A program made the position numbers and the translations under genes. From Methanosphaera stadtmanae DSM 3091 (GTDB taxonomy: Archaea > Methanobacteriota > Methanobacteria > Methanobacteriales > Methanobacteriaceae), in contig NC_007681.1 of assembly GCF_000012545.1 (NCBI RefSeq), forward strand, positions 630,001-662,000: a DNA stretch of 32,000 bases, in the 5' to 3' direction. This document shows positions 7,727 to 14,801 of this stretch, one piece after another. How positions within the stretch are numbered: position 1 is the stretch's first letter; each line of letters opens with the position of its first letter. The notes below the pieces were generated by a model. That model saw only the letters and a list, made by a program, of their open reading frames with translations. It was not told the origin of the DNA and made no database searches.

Positions 7727-8458
7727 ATGACAAAGATTGTCCACATTTCTGATTTACACACTGGTTATGCTCAATTTAGAGAAGATCTTCTACTTCAAAC
7801 AATCGATGAAATAAACAAAATACAACCATCAGCCGTAGTAATATCTGGAGATTTAACTGATCAAGGATTTTATAGGGAATTTATAGAAGCAAAGGAATAT
7901 ATAGACTTAATACAACCGAAAACATTGATAGTTCCTGGAAACCATGATGCACGAAACATTGGTGACACAGTATTTGAGGAATTATTCGGTAAAAGATACA
8001 GTGTACTTGAATTAAAAGAAGAAGCAATAAAAATAATTGGTTTGGATAGTAGTGAACCAGATTTAGGACATGGAAAGATTGGTAGATTACAAAAAAAGTT
8101 TATGGAAGATGAAATAGCTGATGCAAAAGAAAAAGGATTATTTATCATAATAGTACTACATCATCATATAATATCAATACCAAATACTGGTAGGGAAAGA
8201 AATATTTTAAGTGATGCAGGAGATATCTTACTAACAATATTAGAAAACAATGTAAACTTAGTATTATCAGGACATAAACATGTACCACATGCTTGGAAGA
8301 TGAATAATACACTATTTGCAACTGCAGGAACAGTTTCATCTATGAAGTTACGTGGAAATACATGTCCATCATACAATGTAATTGATATTAATAATCAGTA
8401 TATTGAAATAATGTTACATAATTCTAATGGAACAATAAAACCATTAAGACATCCATAA
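7727..8458 (+). CDS. Calcineurin-like metallophosphoesterase
   Basis: The full motif set is present: HISDLHTG, SGDLTDQG, PGNHD, VLHHH, SGHKH. It starts 1 nt after the NAC stop. Confidence 0.85.
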   Translation: MTKIVHISDLHTGYAQFREDLLLQTIDEINKIQPSAVVISGDLTDQGFYREFIEAKEYIDLIQPKTLIVPGNHDARNIGDTVFEELFGKRYSVLELKEEAIKIIGLDSSEPDLGHGKIGRLQKKFMEDEIADAKEKGLFIIIVLHHHIISIPNTGRERNILSDAGDILLTILENNVNLVLSGHKHVPHAWKMNNTLFATAGTVSSMKLRGNTCPSYNVIDINNQYIEIMLHNSNGTIKPLRHP

Positions 8459-8566
8459 CACTAATTCCATATAATTTAAAAAAGTAAATATATCAAAAAT
8501 AATATAAATATATTAATAAATAAATTAGAAAATTTTAAAATAAATAGAATAAAAAAAGGTGATCTT

Positions 8567-9607
8567 TTGAAAATAATTGTTGATGGGTCTAATGTAGCAT
8601 ATTATGGACAGCAACCCAACGAAGAAACAGGAAAGGTAACTCCAAGTTTAAAAACTCTTAAAGTTGCTATAAATACTCTTAAAAAACTAGGACATGAACC
8701 AATTGTTCTATCTGATGCACCATTACGACATGAAATTGATGATAAAGATGGCTTTAATGAAATGATCCAAAATGAAGAGGTGTTTCCAGTACCTGCAGGT
8801 ACAATAGCAGATCATTATATATTAAACCTAGCTTATGAGAAAGATGCTAAAATATTATCAAATGACTTCTTTAGAGATTATCAGGATGAATTTCAAGATA
8901 TTAACAGTAGACGTCTACCATACAGAGTTAAAAATGGTAGATTTCAAATAGGTAAACCAGCACCTCCTAAGAAAGTAAAAAACATACTACAAAAAATCTG
9001 CTCAAATTCATTAAATGAATTTGAAAGAAGGGGTTTTGATGTATATAAATCTAAGAAAAATAGAAAATTTTCAGGATTATCTGTAGCTCAAGAGGCAATA
9101 AACAGGGTAAGTAAAGAGGATGAAAATGCAATAGATTCAAAACTAGAAAATATCTTCCTTAAAGTACCAATATTAAATAAGATGGTAAGCTTAGTAGATG
9201 AAGATATAGATGAATCAGATTTTCTCATATTTGTACTTGTAAATCCTAAAGATTACAAGGAAGCAGTACGTAATGCAGGAACAATAGCAGTTACTGTACG
9301 TAACAAATTAAACTTAGATCATTCCCCACTAGTAGCAGTACGTAATGATCTATTTACAAGACCGGGAACATTTGAATTGAATATAATATATTCTGATGAA
9401 ATTCTTGAAGAATCACCATATAATGTGGATATAATAATAAATGATACAGATTACTCATTTATTAAACATAATTCAAGAAATATTGCAAGTACACTTGCAG
9501 CAAGACTTGGAACATGGAAATTCCCAATTGTATCAGTAAAACCAAGTATGTTAATGGAAAAACCTGGACAATTTGAAATTTCTATAGAAAGAGGGGGTAG
9601 AAATTAG
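8567..9607 (+). CDS. NYN (Zc3h12a-like) ribonuclease domain protein with an uncharacterised ~190-aa C-terminal domain
   Basis: The N-terminus MKIIVDGSNVAYYG...IVLSDAPLRHE...ADHYILNLAYEKDAKILSNDFFRDY matches the NYN/PIN-like Asp pattern. TTG start 4-5 nt after AAAGGTGA. I do not recognise the C-terminal half. Confidence 0.7.
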   Translation: MKIIVDGSNVAYYGQQPNEETGKVTPSLKTLKVAINTLKKLGHEPIVLSDAPLRHEIDDKDGFNEMIQNEEVFPVPAGTIADHYILNLAYEKDAKILSNDFFRDYQDEFQDINSRRLPYRVKNGRFQIGKPAPPKKVKNILQKICSNSLNEFERRGFDVYKSKKNRKFSGLSVAQEAINRVSKEDENAIDSKLENIFLKVPILNKMVSLVDEDIDESDFLIFVLVNPKDYKEAVRNAGTIAVTVRNKLNLDHSPLVAVRNDLFTRPGTFELNIIYSDEILEESPYNVDIIINDTDYSFIKHNSRNIASTLAARLGTWKFPIVSVKPSMLMEKPGQFEISIERGGRN

Positions 9608-10822
9608 ATGGCTTTAGATAGGATTCTAAAAAGCCTATTTTCACAACTTCTACATAAAAAAGTTGTTAGTATTGGAACAAAGTACTATGCAACTAATGAC
9701 TTAGAAACAGAGTATGTTTCTTTAATAAACCTCACAAAAACAATGCTTGTAGAAATTAAACCTGCACAAATAAATGCTAAATCAATATTTCAAAATCTAG
9801 AAAGAGAAATAGACCAAAGAGATCTACCACTTAATAGGAAATTTATTGAAATTAAACCTGCTGAAAATGAAGTAAATGAATATGCACTTCTAAGTAATAT
9901 TATCATGGGAAATGATAGATATCTTTATATTGAATTGTTTAGACCATCTCCTCTTATAGAAACATTTGCAAAAATGGTGGAAGTAGTTGATGGAAAGATC
10001 ATTGAAAGAAGTAAAACAGAAATGGTTGCTCTTATGCCATCAAAAAAGGAAGGAATAAGATTAGCTATTAAAATGATATCTCTTGGAATGAAACAAGGGG
10101 TAAATGTACGTGGTTCAATAGGAATGACTGGAGCAGCATCTATCGAAAGGGCAATAGATATGAATGCTGCAATAGGAGAAGTTTCTGGAGTTGGATTTAC
10201 AAAACTTGGTGGAGAATATGGAGTAATATTTGAAACTGTTCCAACTACTAAAAAAGTTGAATTGAAACCAGTACCAGCAGATAATTTCATGTACATTGAT
10301 GCAAAAGATTCTACAGGATTTATTTCAAGATATGGAAAAGATAAACTTATAGAAATAATGAATGATATCAACTCATATATTGAAAATGAAAGTGATGGAA
10401 AAATAGAAGGATACCGTGTTGGTGGGGATGATTTAATAATTAATTATCCTGATAAATCAACAGCACTGAAAATAGGACTTGACTGTGCATGGTATGCTAT
10501 GAATAATGGATTAAATCTAAGGGTAGGATTAGGAAATAGTAGACGTGAAGCTGCAGAAAATGCACATATCACTGATTCAATAAAAATAAGAGAAAATACT
10601 CCAGTTATAGTGTTTGACTTAGCAAATGGTAAATATGCATACTATATTCCAACAGAATTCACAAGATCTGCAATAACTTTCCTATCAAATCAAACTCTAA
10701 CCTTAATTGGTATATTTATATTCATATTTATAGTAACTTTAATAGGATGGAATTTAAATATCATATGGCTAGGAATAGTAGCTATGATAGTTTCATTAAT
10801 TATGGTGGCAATTAAAGACTAA
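9608..10822 (+). CDS. Membrane-anchored protein with tandem GGDEF/Cas10-like palm domains (degenerate copy plus a copy retaining D-x-x-D and GGDD)
   Basis: aa 227-320, FMYIDAKDSTGFISRYGKDKLIEIMNDINSYIEN..GYRVGGDDLIINYPDKSTALKIGLDCAWYAM..LNLRVGLGNSRREAAENA, follows the GGDEF-domain order element by element: beta1 Asp, helix, GGDD hairpin, helix, hxhShG strand, helix. aa 104-190 repeat the same pattern without the acidic residues. Two C-terminal TM helices lie at aa ~361-402. Its ATG directly abuts the TAG of the NYN gene. Confidence 0.55.
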   Translation: MALDRILKSLFSQLLHKKVVSIGTKYYATNDLETEYVSLINLTKTMLVEIKPAQINAKSIFQNLEREIDQRDLPLNRKFIEIKPAENEVNEYALLSNIIMGNDRYLYIELFRPSPLIETFAKMVEVVDGKIIERSKTEMVALMPSKKEGIRLAIKMISLGMKQGVNVRGSIGMTGAASIERAIDMNAAIGEVSGVGFTKLGGEYGVIFETVPTTKKVELKPVPADNFMYIDAKDSTGFISRYGKDKLIEIMNDINSYIENESDGKIEGYRVGGDDLIINYPDKSTALKIGLDCAWYAMNNGLNLRVGLGNSRREAAENAHITDSIKIRENTPVIVFDLANGKYAYYIPTEFTRSAITFLSNQTLTLIGIFIFIFIVTLIGWNLNIIWLGIVAMIVSLIMVAIKD

Positions 10823-10838
10823 TGGGGAGGTAATAATT

Positions 10839-11258
10839 ATGAATCCAAGTACTAATTCAAAGTTATTTCTTGTATTGGTAGTGGGTGTTGTGGCAATGTT
10901 ATGTGGATCTGTAGGGGCATCATTTATTCGTTTTGATGCACCAAACTTATCTATTGGAGAGTTATTTCAAGGTAATGAGGACAATCCTCTAAATGACTTA
11001 AATAATTCAACACTAAATCAGTCAAATCAAAGTCAATCATCTAATTCATATTCAAAGTATACATCATCACCATCACAACAAAGTACTTCTAAACAAGCAT
11101 CTGTAAAACAACAGAATAAACCGAAAACAACATCATCCAATAATAATCAGAATACTAAACCATCTAAACCGAGTGGTGGTTCTCAAGGTAGTAACACAAA
11201 CCCTAATGGTCAAGATAACCCTTCTGTACATGAGAATGATAATGACTTAATAGCATAA
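10839..11258 (+). CDS. Small N-terminally anchored protein with S/N/Q/K-rich low-complexity ectodomain (paralogue 1)
   Basis: 139 aa. Hydrophobic N-terminus LFLVLVVGVVAMLCGSVGA, then a low-complexity region. GGGGAGG RBS. Its C-terminal third is almost identical to the next gene. Confidence 0.6.
   Translation: MNPSTNSKLFLVLVVGVVAMLCGSVGASFIRFDAPNLSIGELFQGNEDNPLNDLNNSTLNQSNQSQSSNSYSKYTSSPSQQSTSKQASVKQQNKPKTTSSNNNQNTKPSKPSGGSQGSNTNPNGQDNPSVHENDNDLIA
11078..11182 (+). repeat. Direct repeat copy 1 (105 nt, 1 mismatch to 11488-11592)
   Basis: Base-by-base comparison: 11078-11170 is identical to 11488-11580, there is a single mismatch at 11171/11581, then 11 more identical nt. Confidence 0.95.
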
Positions 11259-11275: not shown

Positions 11276-11659
11276 ATGAGGGAAAATAATTTAATAGTGT
11301 TAATAGTAGCAGTAATACTTGTAGGTGCTATTGTAGTGGGAGTATTTACTGGATCATCTCCATCAAATGATAATAACACAACCATAACTGATACAGTTAA
11401 TATGACAAATAACACTACAAACATGACAAATGAAACAAATGCAACATCAACTACAGATGATACTATTCAATCATCAAATTCAAAGTCACAAAGTACTTCT
11501 AAACAAGCATCTGTAAAACAACAGAATAAACCGAAAACAACATCATCCAATAATAATCAGAATACTAAACCATCTAAACCTAGTGGTGGTTCCACAGACA
11601 GTAATACTAATCAACATAACCCTTCTGTACATGAGAAAGATAATGACTTAACAGCATAA
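11276..11659 (+). CDS. Small N-terminally anchored protein with N/T/S-rich low-complexity ectodomain (paralogue 2)
   Basis: 127 aa. N-terminal helix LIVLIVAVILVGAIVVGVF, NxT/S-rich segment, then the shared tail STSKQASVKQQNKPKTTSSNNNQNTKPSKPSGGS...NPSVHE.DNDL.A. Confidence 0.6.
   Translation: MRENNLIVLIVAVILVGAIVVGVFTGSSPSNDNNTTITDTVNMTNNTTNMTNETNATSTTDDTIQSSNSKSQSTSKQASVKQQNKPKTTSSNNNQNTKPSKPSGGSTDSNTNQHNPSVHEKDNDLTA
11488..11592 (+). repeat. Direct repeat copy 2 (105 nt, 1 mismatch to 11078-11182)
   Basis: Same comparison as copy 1. A second, shorter conserved block follows (11215-11258 vs 11616-11659) after a 9-nt length difference. Confidence 0.95.
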
Positions 11660-11763
11660 ATATAATCTAAAGAATAAGAAAAATCGGAAAAATTAATTTA
11701 TAACCACCCAATTTTAAACTTATTTTTTTATTAAATAATTTTTTTTAAGGGAGAAGAGAACTT

Positions 11764-12982: not shown

Positions 12983-13879
12983 ATGGTTGATCAAGAACAA
13001 TTCGATATTAGTAATGTTTTAATTGAAGCATTACCCTACATAAAAAAGTTTCATAATAAAAAAATCATGATTAAGTATGGTGGTCATGCAATGATTGATG
13101 AGAATGCTATGAGTTCCACAGCACGAGATACTGTACTTCTTAAATATGTTGGTATGCAACCTATTGTTGTTCATGGTGGAGGTCCAGAAATTTCCAGATC
13201 CATGGATAAAATGGGTAAAGAACCTAAATTTATTGGTGGTTTAAGAGTTACAGATAAAGAAACTATGGAGATTGTTAAAATGGTTTTGGTGGGTAAAATC
13301 AACACTGAAATTGTTTCTAAACTTGGATTCCATGGTGGAAAGAGTGTTGGTATTTCTGGTAAAGATAGTTATCTTGTTGAAGCATCAAGAAAAGGACTTA
13401 CTAAGGTTAAACATGAGAATGGTGAAGTTTTAGAAGTTGATTTAGGTTATGTTGGTAAGATTGACAGGGTAAATAAACAACTTGTTGATGATTTAACTAA
13501 CAACAATTATATACCTGTTATTTCACCTTTAGGAATTGATGATGATGGAAATACTCTTAATTTGAATGCTGATACTGTTGCAGGTTCTATTGCATCTGAG
13601 GTTAATGCTGAAAAGCTTATTGTACTTACTGATGTTCCTGGTATTTTAACAGATCCTGATGATCCTGAGAGTATGATTAGACGTATTCGTACTGATGAAT
13701 TGAAGGAACTTATTAAGGATGGTATTATTACTGGAGGTATGATTCCTAAGGTAGAAACTTGTATTAATGCTGTTGAAAATGGTGTTAAAACTGCTCATAT
13801 TCTTGATGGTAGACTTAATCATTCTATTTTATTAGAAATCTTCACAAAACATGGAATAGGTACAATGGTACGTGAATAA
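12983..13879 (+). CDS. argB: Acetylglutamate kinase
   Basis: [40 protein letters not shown] and [10 protein letters not shown] are amino acid kinase family/ArgB motifs. Confidence 0.92.
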
Positions 13880-13919
13880 TAATGTATCTCTTTTTTTAAT
13901 TATTTTTTCAAGTGTTTAT

Positions 13920-14801
13920 ATGAAATCAGTTAAATTATCAAATAGTGAAATTAAATCTTTTATGGAAAAAACCAGTACATTTCATCATTTAAATCCAAAA
14001 CAATATGAGAGTATTCGTATTAAAGATGGTGATGTTTTTTTTGTTTTATATAATTCTGGTAAACTTGTTTATAATGATACAAGGGGATGTTTATCTATTT
14101 TAGATGATATTTTAGAAAAGAGGGATTATTTTAAAGAGAATTCATTTGGAAAAAATGAAAATTCTATTTATAATAATACTATTTCTATGAAGAAGTATCA
14201 GTATATTATAGGTTCTGATGAAACTGGTAAAGGTGAATGGTATGGACCATTAGTTGTGTGTGCTGTATGTACATCAAATGATGATATTTTAAAATTAAAA
14301 AGTATTGGTGTTAAGGATAGTAAGAAATTATCAACAAAGGAAATATTTTCATTATATGAAAAAATAGAAAAACTAAATATAACATATGAAGTAATAGTTC
14401 TAAAACCATTTAGCTACAATAAACTATACACTAAATTCACAAATGAAAACAAAAACCTCAATCATCTACTAGCACATCTTCATTATAAGGTAATAAATCA
14501 ATTACTTACAAAAATTAACACAACTGATGTACTTGTAATTATTGATAAATTTGATTATAAGAAGATGAATCAGTATCTTGACATAAATCCAAAAATAGAT
14601 GTAATACAAGAGACTAATGGAGAAAAATATATTCCAGTAGCAACAAGTAGTATTATTGCCAAGTATTATTATGAAAAAACATTAAAAGAAATAGAAGAAA
14701 GATATAATATTAATAGAAAGATAAAACCCAAAAACATAGAAAAAGATATAATAGATAAAGTTGCAAAAACACACTTTAAAAATATTAAACCATACACATA
14801 A
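13920..14801 (+). CDS. rnhC: Ribonuclease HIII-like protein (RNase HII/HIII fold with N-terminal RNase HIII-type domain)
   Basis: IGSDETGKGEWYGPLVVCAVC (the GKG..YGPL variant typical of RNase HIII rather than the GRGPLAGP of HII), GVKDSKKLS and SSIIAKYYYEK. The N-terminal ~90 aa contain YNSGKLVYNDT, like the HIII TBP-like domain (YxSGKvlfQG). I prefer the ATG at 13920 over the GTG at 13872, which overlaps argB. Confidence 0.7.
   Translation: MKSVKLSNSEIKSFMEKTSTFHHLNPKQYESIRIKDGDVFFVLYNSGKLVYNDTRGCLSILDDILEKRDYFKENSFGKNENSIYNNTISMKKYQYIIGSDETGKGEWYGPLVVCAVCTSNDDILKLKSIGVKDSKKLSTKEIFSLYEKIEKLNITYEVIVLKPFSYNKLYTKFTNENKNLNHLLAHLHYKVINQLLTKINTTDVLVIIDKFDYKKMNQYLDINPKIDVIQETNGEKYIPVATSSIIAKYYYEKTLKEIEERYNINRKIKPKNIEKDIIDKVAKTHFKNIKPYT

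Follow-up and report, generated by a model that had tools for sequence, protein, structure and literature searches.

A core gene pair of pseudomurein-walled methanogens couples a diverged, tandem cyclase-like membrane protein to a conserved partner domain

What function might be served by a membrane-attached protein with two palm domains whose gene lies directly beside that of a ribonuclease in a methanogenic archaeon? This question is raised by two adjoining genes in a 32,000-nucleotide (nt) stretch of the Methanosphaera stadtmanae DSM 3091 genome (NC_007681.1, positions 630,001-662,000, forward strand), which we refer to in full as the window. The first open reading frame (ORF; 8567-9607, + strand) encodes a 346-amino-acid (aa) protein composed of an NYN ribonuclease domain and a region termed X, and the second (9608-10822, + strand) encodes a 404-aa cyclase-like protein. 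A first-pass annotation made from the sequence alone considered the pair to be a new signalling or conflict module built on a GGDEF- or Cas10-like enzyme. Our analysis instead points to the class III nucleotidyl cyclase superfamily and to a housekeeping setting. We assign a probability of roughly 0.45 to the explanation we prefer, namely that the 404-aa protein is an active pseudo-heterodimeric nucleotidyl cyclase that works with the X/NYN protein and, in Methanobacterium, with an Icc/Rv0805-like phosphodiesterase encoded in the same operon.

The AlphaFold 2 (AF2) model of the 404-aa protein (pLDDT 79.4, pTM 0.67) exhibits the order beta-alpha-beta-beta-alpha-beta-alpha-beta-beta in two copies, followed by two hydrophobic C-terminal helices (residues 363-382 and 388-403) that bear out the membrane anchor suggested by the first-pass annotation. 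The beta-alpha-alpha-beta-beta-alpha-beta core of a palm fold is modelled at residues 226-346 and again at residues 105-208. When domain A (aa 100-215) is aligned with domain B (aa 220-350) by hhalign, the two match with a probability of 97.4% (E 1.1e-11), and the protein is therefore the product of an internal duplication. The segments paired in this alignment are LYIELF with MYIDAK, IIERSKTEMVALMP with EGYRVGGDDLIINYP, and VNVRGSIGMTG with LNLRVGLGNSR, which are the same pairings from which a live and a degenerate palm had been recognised at the outset. The two motifs of the live copy were also placed correctly, as checked on the translation: YIDAKD occupies aa 229-234 (nt 10292-10309, with D231 at nt 10298-10300) and GGDD occupies aa 272-275 (nt 10421-10432). 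The N-terminal domain (aa 1-99), which we leave unassigned, shows no relation to A, B or X by hhalign.

Conservation among homologues is concentrated on the presumed metal-binding residues of domain B. An alignment of 22 homologues from Methanosphaera and Methanobacterium shows no variation at D231, D234 or G272-G273-D274-D275. D231 and GGDD are also invariant across Methanopyrus, although the Methanobacteriaceae and Methanopyrus sequences share only about 22% identity overall in the combined alignment, and domain B alone keeps them. The expectation that D234 would be equally constant holds within the Methanobacteriaceae but not in Methanopyrus, where this position is G or E. Across the two orders the invariant residues of domain B are D231, S235, GGDD, P281, K283, G307, G309, S311 and E317, and the strand-1 motif of Methanopyrus, YLDIVGSS, resembles the class III motif FTDIVGST. 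Domain A has lost the metal-binding aspartates, as had been noted, but it is not devoid of acidic residues, given that E109 and T137-E138 stand at or beside the metal-Asp positions in Methanobacteriaceae. E109 and E138 are not conserved in Methanopyrus, and we therefore regard domain A as the degenerate copy. It nevertheless has invariant residues of its own (R104, K146, R151, G172, T174, E180, R181, K199 and E203), and those of the N-terminal domain are G23, T24, Y26, E33 and N41.

Besides a single full-length cluster and some fragments, a family profile search of 1.84 billion cluster representatives recovered P0251 from Methanopyrus, a distant full-length relative (E 1.6e-25) whose cluster includes M. 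kandleri AAM01324.1. Because this search yielded no full-length relatives outside Methanobacteriaceae and Methanopyrus, no informative distant homologue is available. Two of the proteins recovered from ENA metagenomes carry parts of the family sequence. P0277 (251 aa) is a VWA-domain protein that ends with 'ANGLYAYYIPSDFTR' and then a transmembrane (TM) hairpin, corresponding to the C-terminal module of the family (aa ~336-400), and this anchor module thus seems to serve in a different protein setting as well. P0260 (447 aa) carries only the equivalent of aa 69-138 (…YALVSNIIMGSDRYFYVE…) amid unrelated sequence and is probably a degraded or chimeric family copy.

Palm domains occur in several enzyme families, and we therefore compared the protein with each of the candidates. 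Foldseek searches against the PDB were judged on the top 50 matches and PDB profile searches on matches at E ≤ 10, whereas curated Pfam, NCBIfam and PADLOC models were run on the full protein, on the isolated domains and on 15 family members. The first Foldseek match is adenylyl cyclase 9 (AC9; E 1.3e-5), specifically its soluble C1/C2 tandem, which, like A and B, comprises two homologous domains and is matched over 407 columns. This is followed by Ma1120 (TM-score 0.5), Rv1900c, photoactivated cyclases and guanylyl cyclases, and the top matches have a probability of 1.00. Ranks 7 and 8 are held by the GTP cyclohydrolase III of M. jannaschii (2qv6; E 2.9e-4, 271 columns, both domains). On its own, the 404-aa sequence matches no Pfam or NCBIfam model and nothing in the PDB, and class III cyclases were reached only by a profile that includes Methanopyrus (profile A2). 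All six PDB matches of this profile are of class III cyclase type, among them the cyclase-homology domain (CHD) of Rv1900c (E 7.8e-5), several Ma1120 entries (E 0.002-0.009) and 3mr7, annotated as an adenylate/guanylate cyclase (E 1.4). In the profile alignment to Rv1900c, D231 falls on the aspartate in FTDIVGST and D274 on that in AGDGF. The protein thus carries, invariant across two orders, the strand-1 and beta2-beta3 hairpin aspartates by which class III enzymes bind metal. On the basis of these profile and fold matches, we conclude that the 404-aa protein is best assigned to the class III cyclase superfamily as a strongly diverged member.

The first-pass annotation had looked for the relatives of this protein elsewhere. 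Its expectation that profile and structure searches would return a palm or cyclase match was borne out, but the match is to class III and not to GGDEF, Cas10 or mCpol. The GGDD hairpin in its YRxGGDD context is GGDEF- and Cas10-like, all of these proteins belong to the palm superfamily, and Cas10 likewise combines a live with a degenerate palm and can have an RNase as its downstream effector. However, the hairpin reads GGDD instead of GG[DE]EF, no GGDEF chain occurs among the PDB profile matches, and neither GGDEF nor Cas10 chains occur among the Foldseek top 50. PF00990 (GGDEF) gave no match at E ≤ 10, and PF05165 (GTP cyclohydrolase III) gave no match, to the full protein, its domains or the family members. 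The Cas10, mCpol and PycC models of PADLOC do not recognise the window protein, although PycC weakly matches the Methanopyrus protein (E 0.034). A search of a viral fold library produced cyclase and GGDEF matches that were all weak (E 0.01-0.15 for GGDEF), and none lay below E 0.001. The 404-aa protein therefore shows no specific sequence or fold preference for Cas10, mCpol or GGDEF proteins, and is not demonstrably affiliated with any of them. The more general idea of a nucleotide-transforming enzyme is supported as a prediction.

The adjoining gene was described as that of an NYN RNase, and this is accurate for Methanobacteriaceae. PF11977 matches aa 2-142 with E 2.4e-22 (79.8 bits against a cut-off of 23), the PDB matches are MCPIP1 and ZC3H12C, and the acidic and catalytic residues D6, N9, D82, D99 and D/E103 (in the contexts VD6gsN9, AD82H, SND99 and FRD/E103) are kept in 16 Methanobacteriaceae sequences. 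In Methanopyrus, however, the corresponding protein (232-238 aa) stands alone, with neither NYN nor any Pfam domain. The X domain of the window matches this stand-alone protein over aa 133-346 with 31% identity (E 1e-34), and its invariant motifs are IAVT, PLVxxRNDL and IASTxAxR...KFPxVxVKxSxL. Given that X is encoded alone in Methanopyrus, the ancient pair consists of X and the tandem cyclase, with NYN added in the Methanobacteriales lineage. Judging from these sequence comparisons, the anciently conserved partner is the ~210-aa X domain, not the RNase.

The nature of X itself is less readily predicted. Pfam has no match for it, a PDB profile search yielded no hit with E below 1, neither a CARF nor a SAVED domain was seen with Pfam or PADLOC, and hhalign reveals no relation to the three domains of the 404-aa protein. 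AF2 run on a 14-sequence alignment gave no usable model (pLDDT 37). Weak PADLOC Cas5 matches (E 0.002-0.006) cover residues 239-319 of the NYN-X protein; these could reflect a RAMP/RRM-like fold or simply chance, and we treat them as unreliable because they are weak and occur in just 2 of 9 members.

Gene order provides further information on the roles these genes are likely to serve. In a scan of one genome per GTDB species, 231 genomes carried a relative, and the best 80 of the 231 loci were inspected. All 80, which are from Methanobacteriaceae, have the NYN gene immediately before the cyclase-like gene, the gap is at most 1 nt or an overlap in 66, and the order NAC, metallophosphoesterase, NYN, cyclase-like gene, small gene, argJ, argB is kept throughout, phosphoesterase losses aside. 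In four Methanopyrus loci, the X gene lies 0-15 nt upstream of the cyclase-like gene. Thus, the two genes do co-occur outside this genome, as the initial hypothesis needed, and in Methanopyrus this holds for the part of the pair other than NYN. The neighbours in the window (NAC, argJ, argB, RNase HII and argC) are housekeeping genes, and the locus is single-copy. Because the locus is single-copy, strictly syntenic with housekeeping genes and universal in the pseudomurein methanogens tested, it belongs to the vertically inherited core of these genomes rather than to a defence island. The gene pair is accordingly a core component of pseudomurein-walled methanogens, and the proposal of a conflict or defence module is contradicted; the distribution is neither sporadic nor island-like, and PADLOC found nothing significant for the window protein.

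The downstream surroundings of the Methanopyrus pair are unlike those in Methanobacteriaceae. The cyclase-like gene overlaps a gene for a ThiC-like radical-SAM protein (PF01964) by 4 nt (locus L081, 7356-9732; L082, 7347-9703; L084, 7395-9757), and a gene for an RNA ligase (PF09414) comes next.

Upstream of the pair in the window is a metallophosphoesterase gene, which was called complete at first reading and is indeed so: Pfam Metallophos matches at E 3.4e-18, and the motif residues D-x-H, GD, GNHD and GHxH are present. Its closest PDB sequences are Rv0805 and Icc (E 8e-7), and the NCBIfam CpdA model PRK11148 matches with E 7e-13, although at 48.6 bits it remains under the cut-off of 225. On this evidence the protein is a candidate cyclic-nucleotide phosphodiesterase. 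In Methanobacterium the gene is 0-9 nt from the NYN gene or overlaps it in 54 of 64 loci, an operon fusion that fits a pairing of synthase and degrader. In the window a 108-nt AT-rich spacer separates the two genes.

The explanation we prefer for these observations is the following. On this view, the 404-aa protein would belong to the class III nucleotidyl cyclase (palm) superfamily as a membrane enzyme anchored by its C-terminal tail, in which domain B retains the metal-binding Asp pair (D231 of strand 1, D274 of the GGDD hairpin) and domain A, having lost both, retains invariant Arg, Lys, Thr and Glu residues of its own. By analogy to C1 and C2 of mammalian adenylyl cyclase, A and B would pack as an intramolecular pseudo-heterodimer with a single active site at their interface, where a nucleoside triphosphate (NTP) would be converted to a cyclic nucleotide and pyrophosphate on the cytoplasmic face of the membrane. 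The cyclase-like gene is translationally coupled to the gene for the X-bearing partner, and X would bind the cyclase, either to regulate it or to receive the nucleotide that it makes. An N-terminal NYN endoribonuclease has been gained by X in Methanobacteriales, and because X is fused to NYN there, the output in these organisms is probably RNA cleavage. In Methanobacterium, the Icc/Rv0805-type phosphoesterase of the same operon would degrade the nucleotide.

Known class III cyclases (C1/C2 of the transmembrane adenylyl cyclases, Rv1900c and Ma1120) share several attributes with the 404-aa protein beyond being its best profile and fold matches. These include the palm fold, a first metal Asp within D-[IA]-x-x-S-[TS] on strand 1, a second in a G-D hairpin, a G-x-G on strand 4, two homologous domains with the Asp pair on one of them, and attachment to the membrane. 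However, the protein also departs from these enzymes in that the Asp pair is on its second domain and not on its first, a C-terminal TM hairpin takes the place of N-terminal TM bundles, and there are an extra N-terminal domain and an obligatory X partner.

Several further observations weigh against an active cyclase. No Pfam or NCBIfam cyclase model, PF00211 included, reaches even E 10 on any family member, so that the protein lies under every curated hidden Markov model (HMM) threshold. Compared with canonical CHDs, the part that follows strand 4 is shortened, and neither the transition-state Asn/Arg pair of class III enzymes nor the base-specifying residues were identified in the CHD alignment. 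The Asn/Arg region cannot be mapped because the alignment to CHDs stops after strand 4, directly after which the AF2 model places a helix. We considered whether E133, at the Lys/Glu position of domain A, might indicate base specificity, and rejected this since the position is not conserved in Methanopyrus. The Foldseek scores are modest (E 1e-5 to 1e-3), and GTP cyclohydrolase III, a hydrolase that likewise has a tandem fold, scores comparably. X lacks a nucleotide-binding fold recognisable by Pfam or PDB profile searches. The phosphoesterase is missing from 11 of 15 Methanosphaera-type loci (L002, L004-L012 and L014) and is absent from the neighbourhood of the pair in the Methanopyrus loci; it is therefore not an obligatory component. 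Lastly, a census by Galperin in 2005 deemed archaeal ORFs resembling adenylate cyclase 3 (AC3) 'highly diverged and probably inactive' (PMC1183210).

Some of these points would be expected if the protein were a pseudo-enzyme, with catalysis lost and the protein retained as a membrane anchor or regulator for X/NYN, for example to place the RNase at the membrane. The silence of the curated cyclase HMMs, the lack of recognisable Asn/Arg and specificity residues and the verdict of the 2005 census all agree with such a scaffold, as does the tight coupling to the partner gene. What makes us consider it unlikely is the pattern of conservation: D231, S235, GGDD and G307-x-G309-x-S311 are invariant from Methanobacteriales to Methanopyrales at ~22% identity, which fits retained metal and phosphate binding, and the degenerate copy A reveals what loss looks like within one and the same protein.

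A second alternative retains catalysis but changes its purpose. The protein could be a GTP cyclohydrolase III-like or other non-signalling NTP-transforming enzyme, with a metabolic rather than a messenger-making role. GTP cyclohydrolase III (MJ0145, 2qv6) is also an archaeal single-chain tandem palm enzyme from a methanogen, its fold match covers both domains, and the GGDD hairpin resembles 'GGDN', the former Pfam name of the GTP cyclohydrolase III family. However, this resemblance is confined to the fold, since the PDB matches of profile A2 at E ≤ 10 are all of class III cyclase type and do not include 2qv6, and PF05165 gives no match. GTP cyclohydrolase III is furthermore soluble, has no such partner and performs different chemistry, and a membrane anchor together with an RNase-fused partner would be unexpected for an enzyme of cofactor biosynthesis. 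We judge this alternative to be distinctly improbable.

It is more improbable still that the protein is a palm nucleotidyltransferase acting on RNA ends, as part of an RNA processing or repair unit with the NYN RNase, the phosphoesterase and the RNA ligase. In its favour, polymerases too are built from palm domains, the Methanobacteriales partner carries an RNase fusion, Methanobacterium has a metallophosphoesterase gene upstream, and in Methanopyrus an RNA ligase is encoded two genes downstream. Nevertheless, no lineage has all three of these RNA-related neighbours, cyclases rather than polymerases are the closest relatives in sequence and fold, and the 404-aa protein yielded no nucleic-acid-binding domain.

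An oligo- or dinucleotide cyclase of the Cas10, mCpol or GGDEF type that signals to the NYN RNase in defence, for which the hairpin, the adjoining RNase gene and the weak GGDEF and PycC matches might be cited, is equally improbable and is the alternative contradicted most clearly, by the failure of its family models and folds to appear in the Pfam, PADLOC, PDB profile and Foldseek searches, by a locus that has neither cas genes, an HD domain nor a CARF/SAVED effector, by the absence of NYN from Methanopyrus, and by a core, single-copy distribution, strictly syntenic in all 80 loci and universal in pseudomurein archaea, that is the opposite of that seen for defence islands. The Pycsar systems warrant a separate comparison, given that they also place a class III-like cyclase (PycC) beside a putative effector gene. 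However, the effector candidate here has no cNMP-binding domain, and the pair is vertically inherited and universal in its clade.

The claim of a new architecture also requires revision, since the pair itself is not new to the literature, where it has been noted but not characterised. Lupo et al. (2025) list it as 'cluster D', comprising the orthologous groups (OGs) OG0001213 (NYN) and OG0001214 ('Nucleotide cyclase', >1 TM segment), with 1-2 TM segments predicted for orthologues of the 404-aa protein (PMC11915815). The pair was found in Methanothermobacter, Methanobrevibacter smithii, Methanothermus, Methanobacterium and Methanopyrus, which are all five of the pseudomurein archaea examined, and OG0001214 is exclusive to pseudomurein-containing archaea (PMC11915815). 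In that study the Gene3D/SUPERFAMILY cyclase label falls on the Methanopyrus member of OG0001214 alone, and the Methanopyrus member of OG0001213 has no NYN annotation (PMC11915815). The annotation of the M. kandleri orthologue AAM01324.1 reads 'Predicted diverged member of adenylate cyclase 3 family'. The window genes are the Methanosphaera orthologues of this identical gene pair, for which these sources give only the listing and an InterPro superfamily label. What we add is the tandem duplication, the asymmetry between live and degenerate copies, the invariance of the metal site, X as the conserved partner and the linkage to the phosphoesterase.

The phyletic pattern led us to consider a role in pseudomurein biosynthesis, which we rejected given that the proteins show no sign of glycan or peptide chemistry. 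Lupo et al. likewise judged cluster D to be unrelated to this pathway, and other genes without a wall function have a similar pattern, such as that for cyclic 2,3-diphosphoglycerate synthetase (OG0001215), which is among the OGs of pseudomurein archaea (PMC11915815).

The coordinates of the relevant features are collected in Table 1. On re-reading the ORFs, the boundaries of both genes and the gaps of 0, 16 and 17 nt within the four-gene unit headed by the NYN-X gene were found to be as first reported. The ATG of the cyclase-like gene at 9608 abuts the TAG stop codon of the NYN-X gene, and GAGGGGGT lies upstream of this ATG, inside the 3' end of the NYN-X gene. The NYN-X gene begins with TTG at 8567, a start that is credible because the Shine-Dalgarno-like AGGTGAT precedes it and because homologues begin at the equivalent residue in the alignment.

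Table 1. Features in and around the NYN-X and cyclase-like genes (window coordinates).
Feature	Coordinates	Strand	Basis
Metallophosphoesterase, Icc/CpdA/Rv0805-like, accessory neighbour	7727..8458	+	Pfam Metallophos, PDB matches
Shine-Dalgarno-like AGGTGAT, precedes TTG start of NYN-X gene	8557..8563	+	Sequence read
NYN (Zc3h12a-like) ribonuclease domain, aa 1-142 of 346-aa protein	8567..8992	+	PF11977
X domain, aa 133-346 of 346-aa protein	8963..9607	+	Similarity to stand-alone Methanopyrus protein
N-terminal alpha/beta domain, aa 1-99 of 404-aa protein	9608..9904	+	AF2 secondary structure
Cyclase-homology domain A, aa 100-215, degenerate copy	9905..10252	+	hhalign against domain B
Cyclase-homology domain B, aa 220-350, catalytic-looking copy	10265..10657	+	Profile and Foldseek matches
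C-terminal TM hairpin (tail anchor), aa 363-403	10694..10816	+	AF2 helices, hydrophobic sequence
Small protein, N-terminal TM, low-complexity, 139 aa	10839..11258	+	ORF; ribosome-binding site GGGGAGGT
Tandem duplicate of 139-aa small membrane protein, 127 aa	11276..11659	+	DNA identity of 3' halves
T7 and T8 runs, before argJ	11723..11746	+	Sequence read

The two small proteins encoded after the pair each have a TM helix at the N terminus and a low-complexity tail rich in Ser, Asn, Gln and Thr, and they are recent tandem duplicates: their genes are 93% identical between 11078-11200 and 11488-11610, and 94% identical in the last 49 nt. The 139-aa protein has weak similarity limited to Methanosphaera loci, and a small gene of similar type occupies this position in Methanobacterium (locus L027, 7296-7649) but cannot be aligned with it. 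The T7 and T8 runs are likely an archaeal terminator region that closes the unit before argJ.

Elsewhere in the window, a 309-aa RNase HII-family protein (PF01351, E 8e-27) with an N-terminal extension of ~110 aa of unassigned type is encoded at 13872-14801, between argB and argC. The GC content across the window is ~23-35%, and the whole 32 kb contains no tRNA genes and no Rfam families at gathering score.

The biological interest of the pair stems from a longstanding gap in our understanding of these organisms. Cyclic AMP (cAMP) was detected in Methanothermobacter in 1986, and according to a 2023 review none of the archaeal proteins characterised so far makes, degrades or binds cAMP (PMC10249747). 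The archaeal CYTH 'class IV cyclases' are triphosphatases, not cyclases (PMC8233210). The pair described here could plausibly supply the cyclic-nucleotide synthase of these archaea. A more ambitious proposal, which we regard as unlikely but worth stating, is that it constitutes the missing cyclic-nucleotide system of pseudomurein methanogens, in which the cyclase would make cAMP or another cNMP, X would be a new type of cyclase partner or nucleotide receiver that gates the NYN RNase, and the Icc-like phosphoesterase would reset the system. If this is true, Methanobacteriales would possess a direct path from a second messenger to RNA decay at the membrane. Moreover, because the module occurs in all pseudomurein lineages and is confined to them, it might link the state of the envelope or of growth to RNA turnover.

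The 404-aa family has been dismissed as probably inactive, yet its two-metal site is intact across the split between Methanobacteriales and Methanopyrales and its tandem arrangement is like that of C1/C2. If the protein does cyclise an NTP, the synthase, and possibly also the degrader and effector, for cyclic-nucleotide signalling in one major group of gut and environmental methanogens would be at hand; if it does not, a conserved pseudo-cyclase scaffold will have been documented. In either case, the family offers an experimental entry to the question of cyclic-nucleotide synthesis in methanogens.

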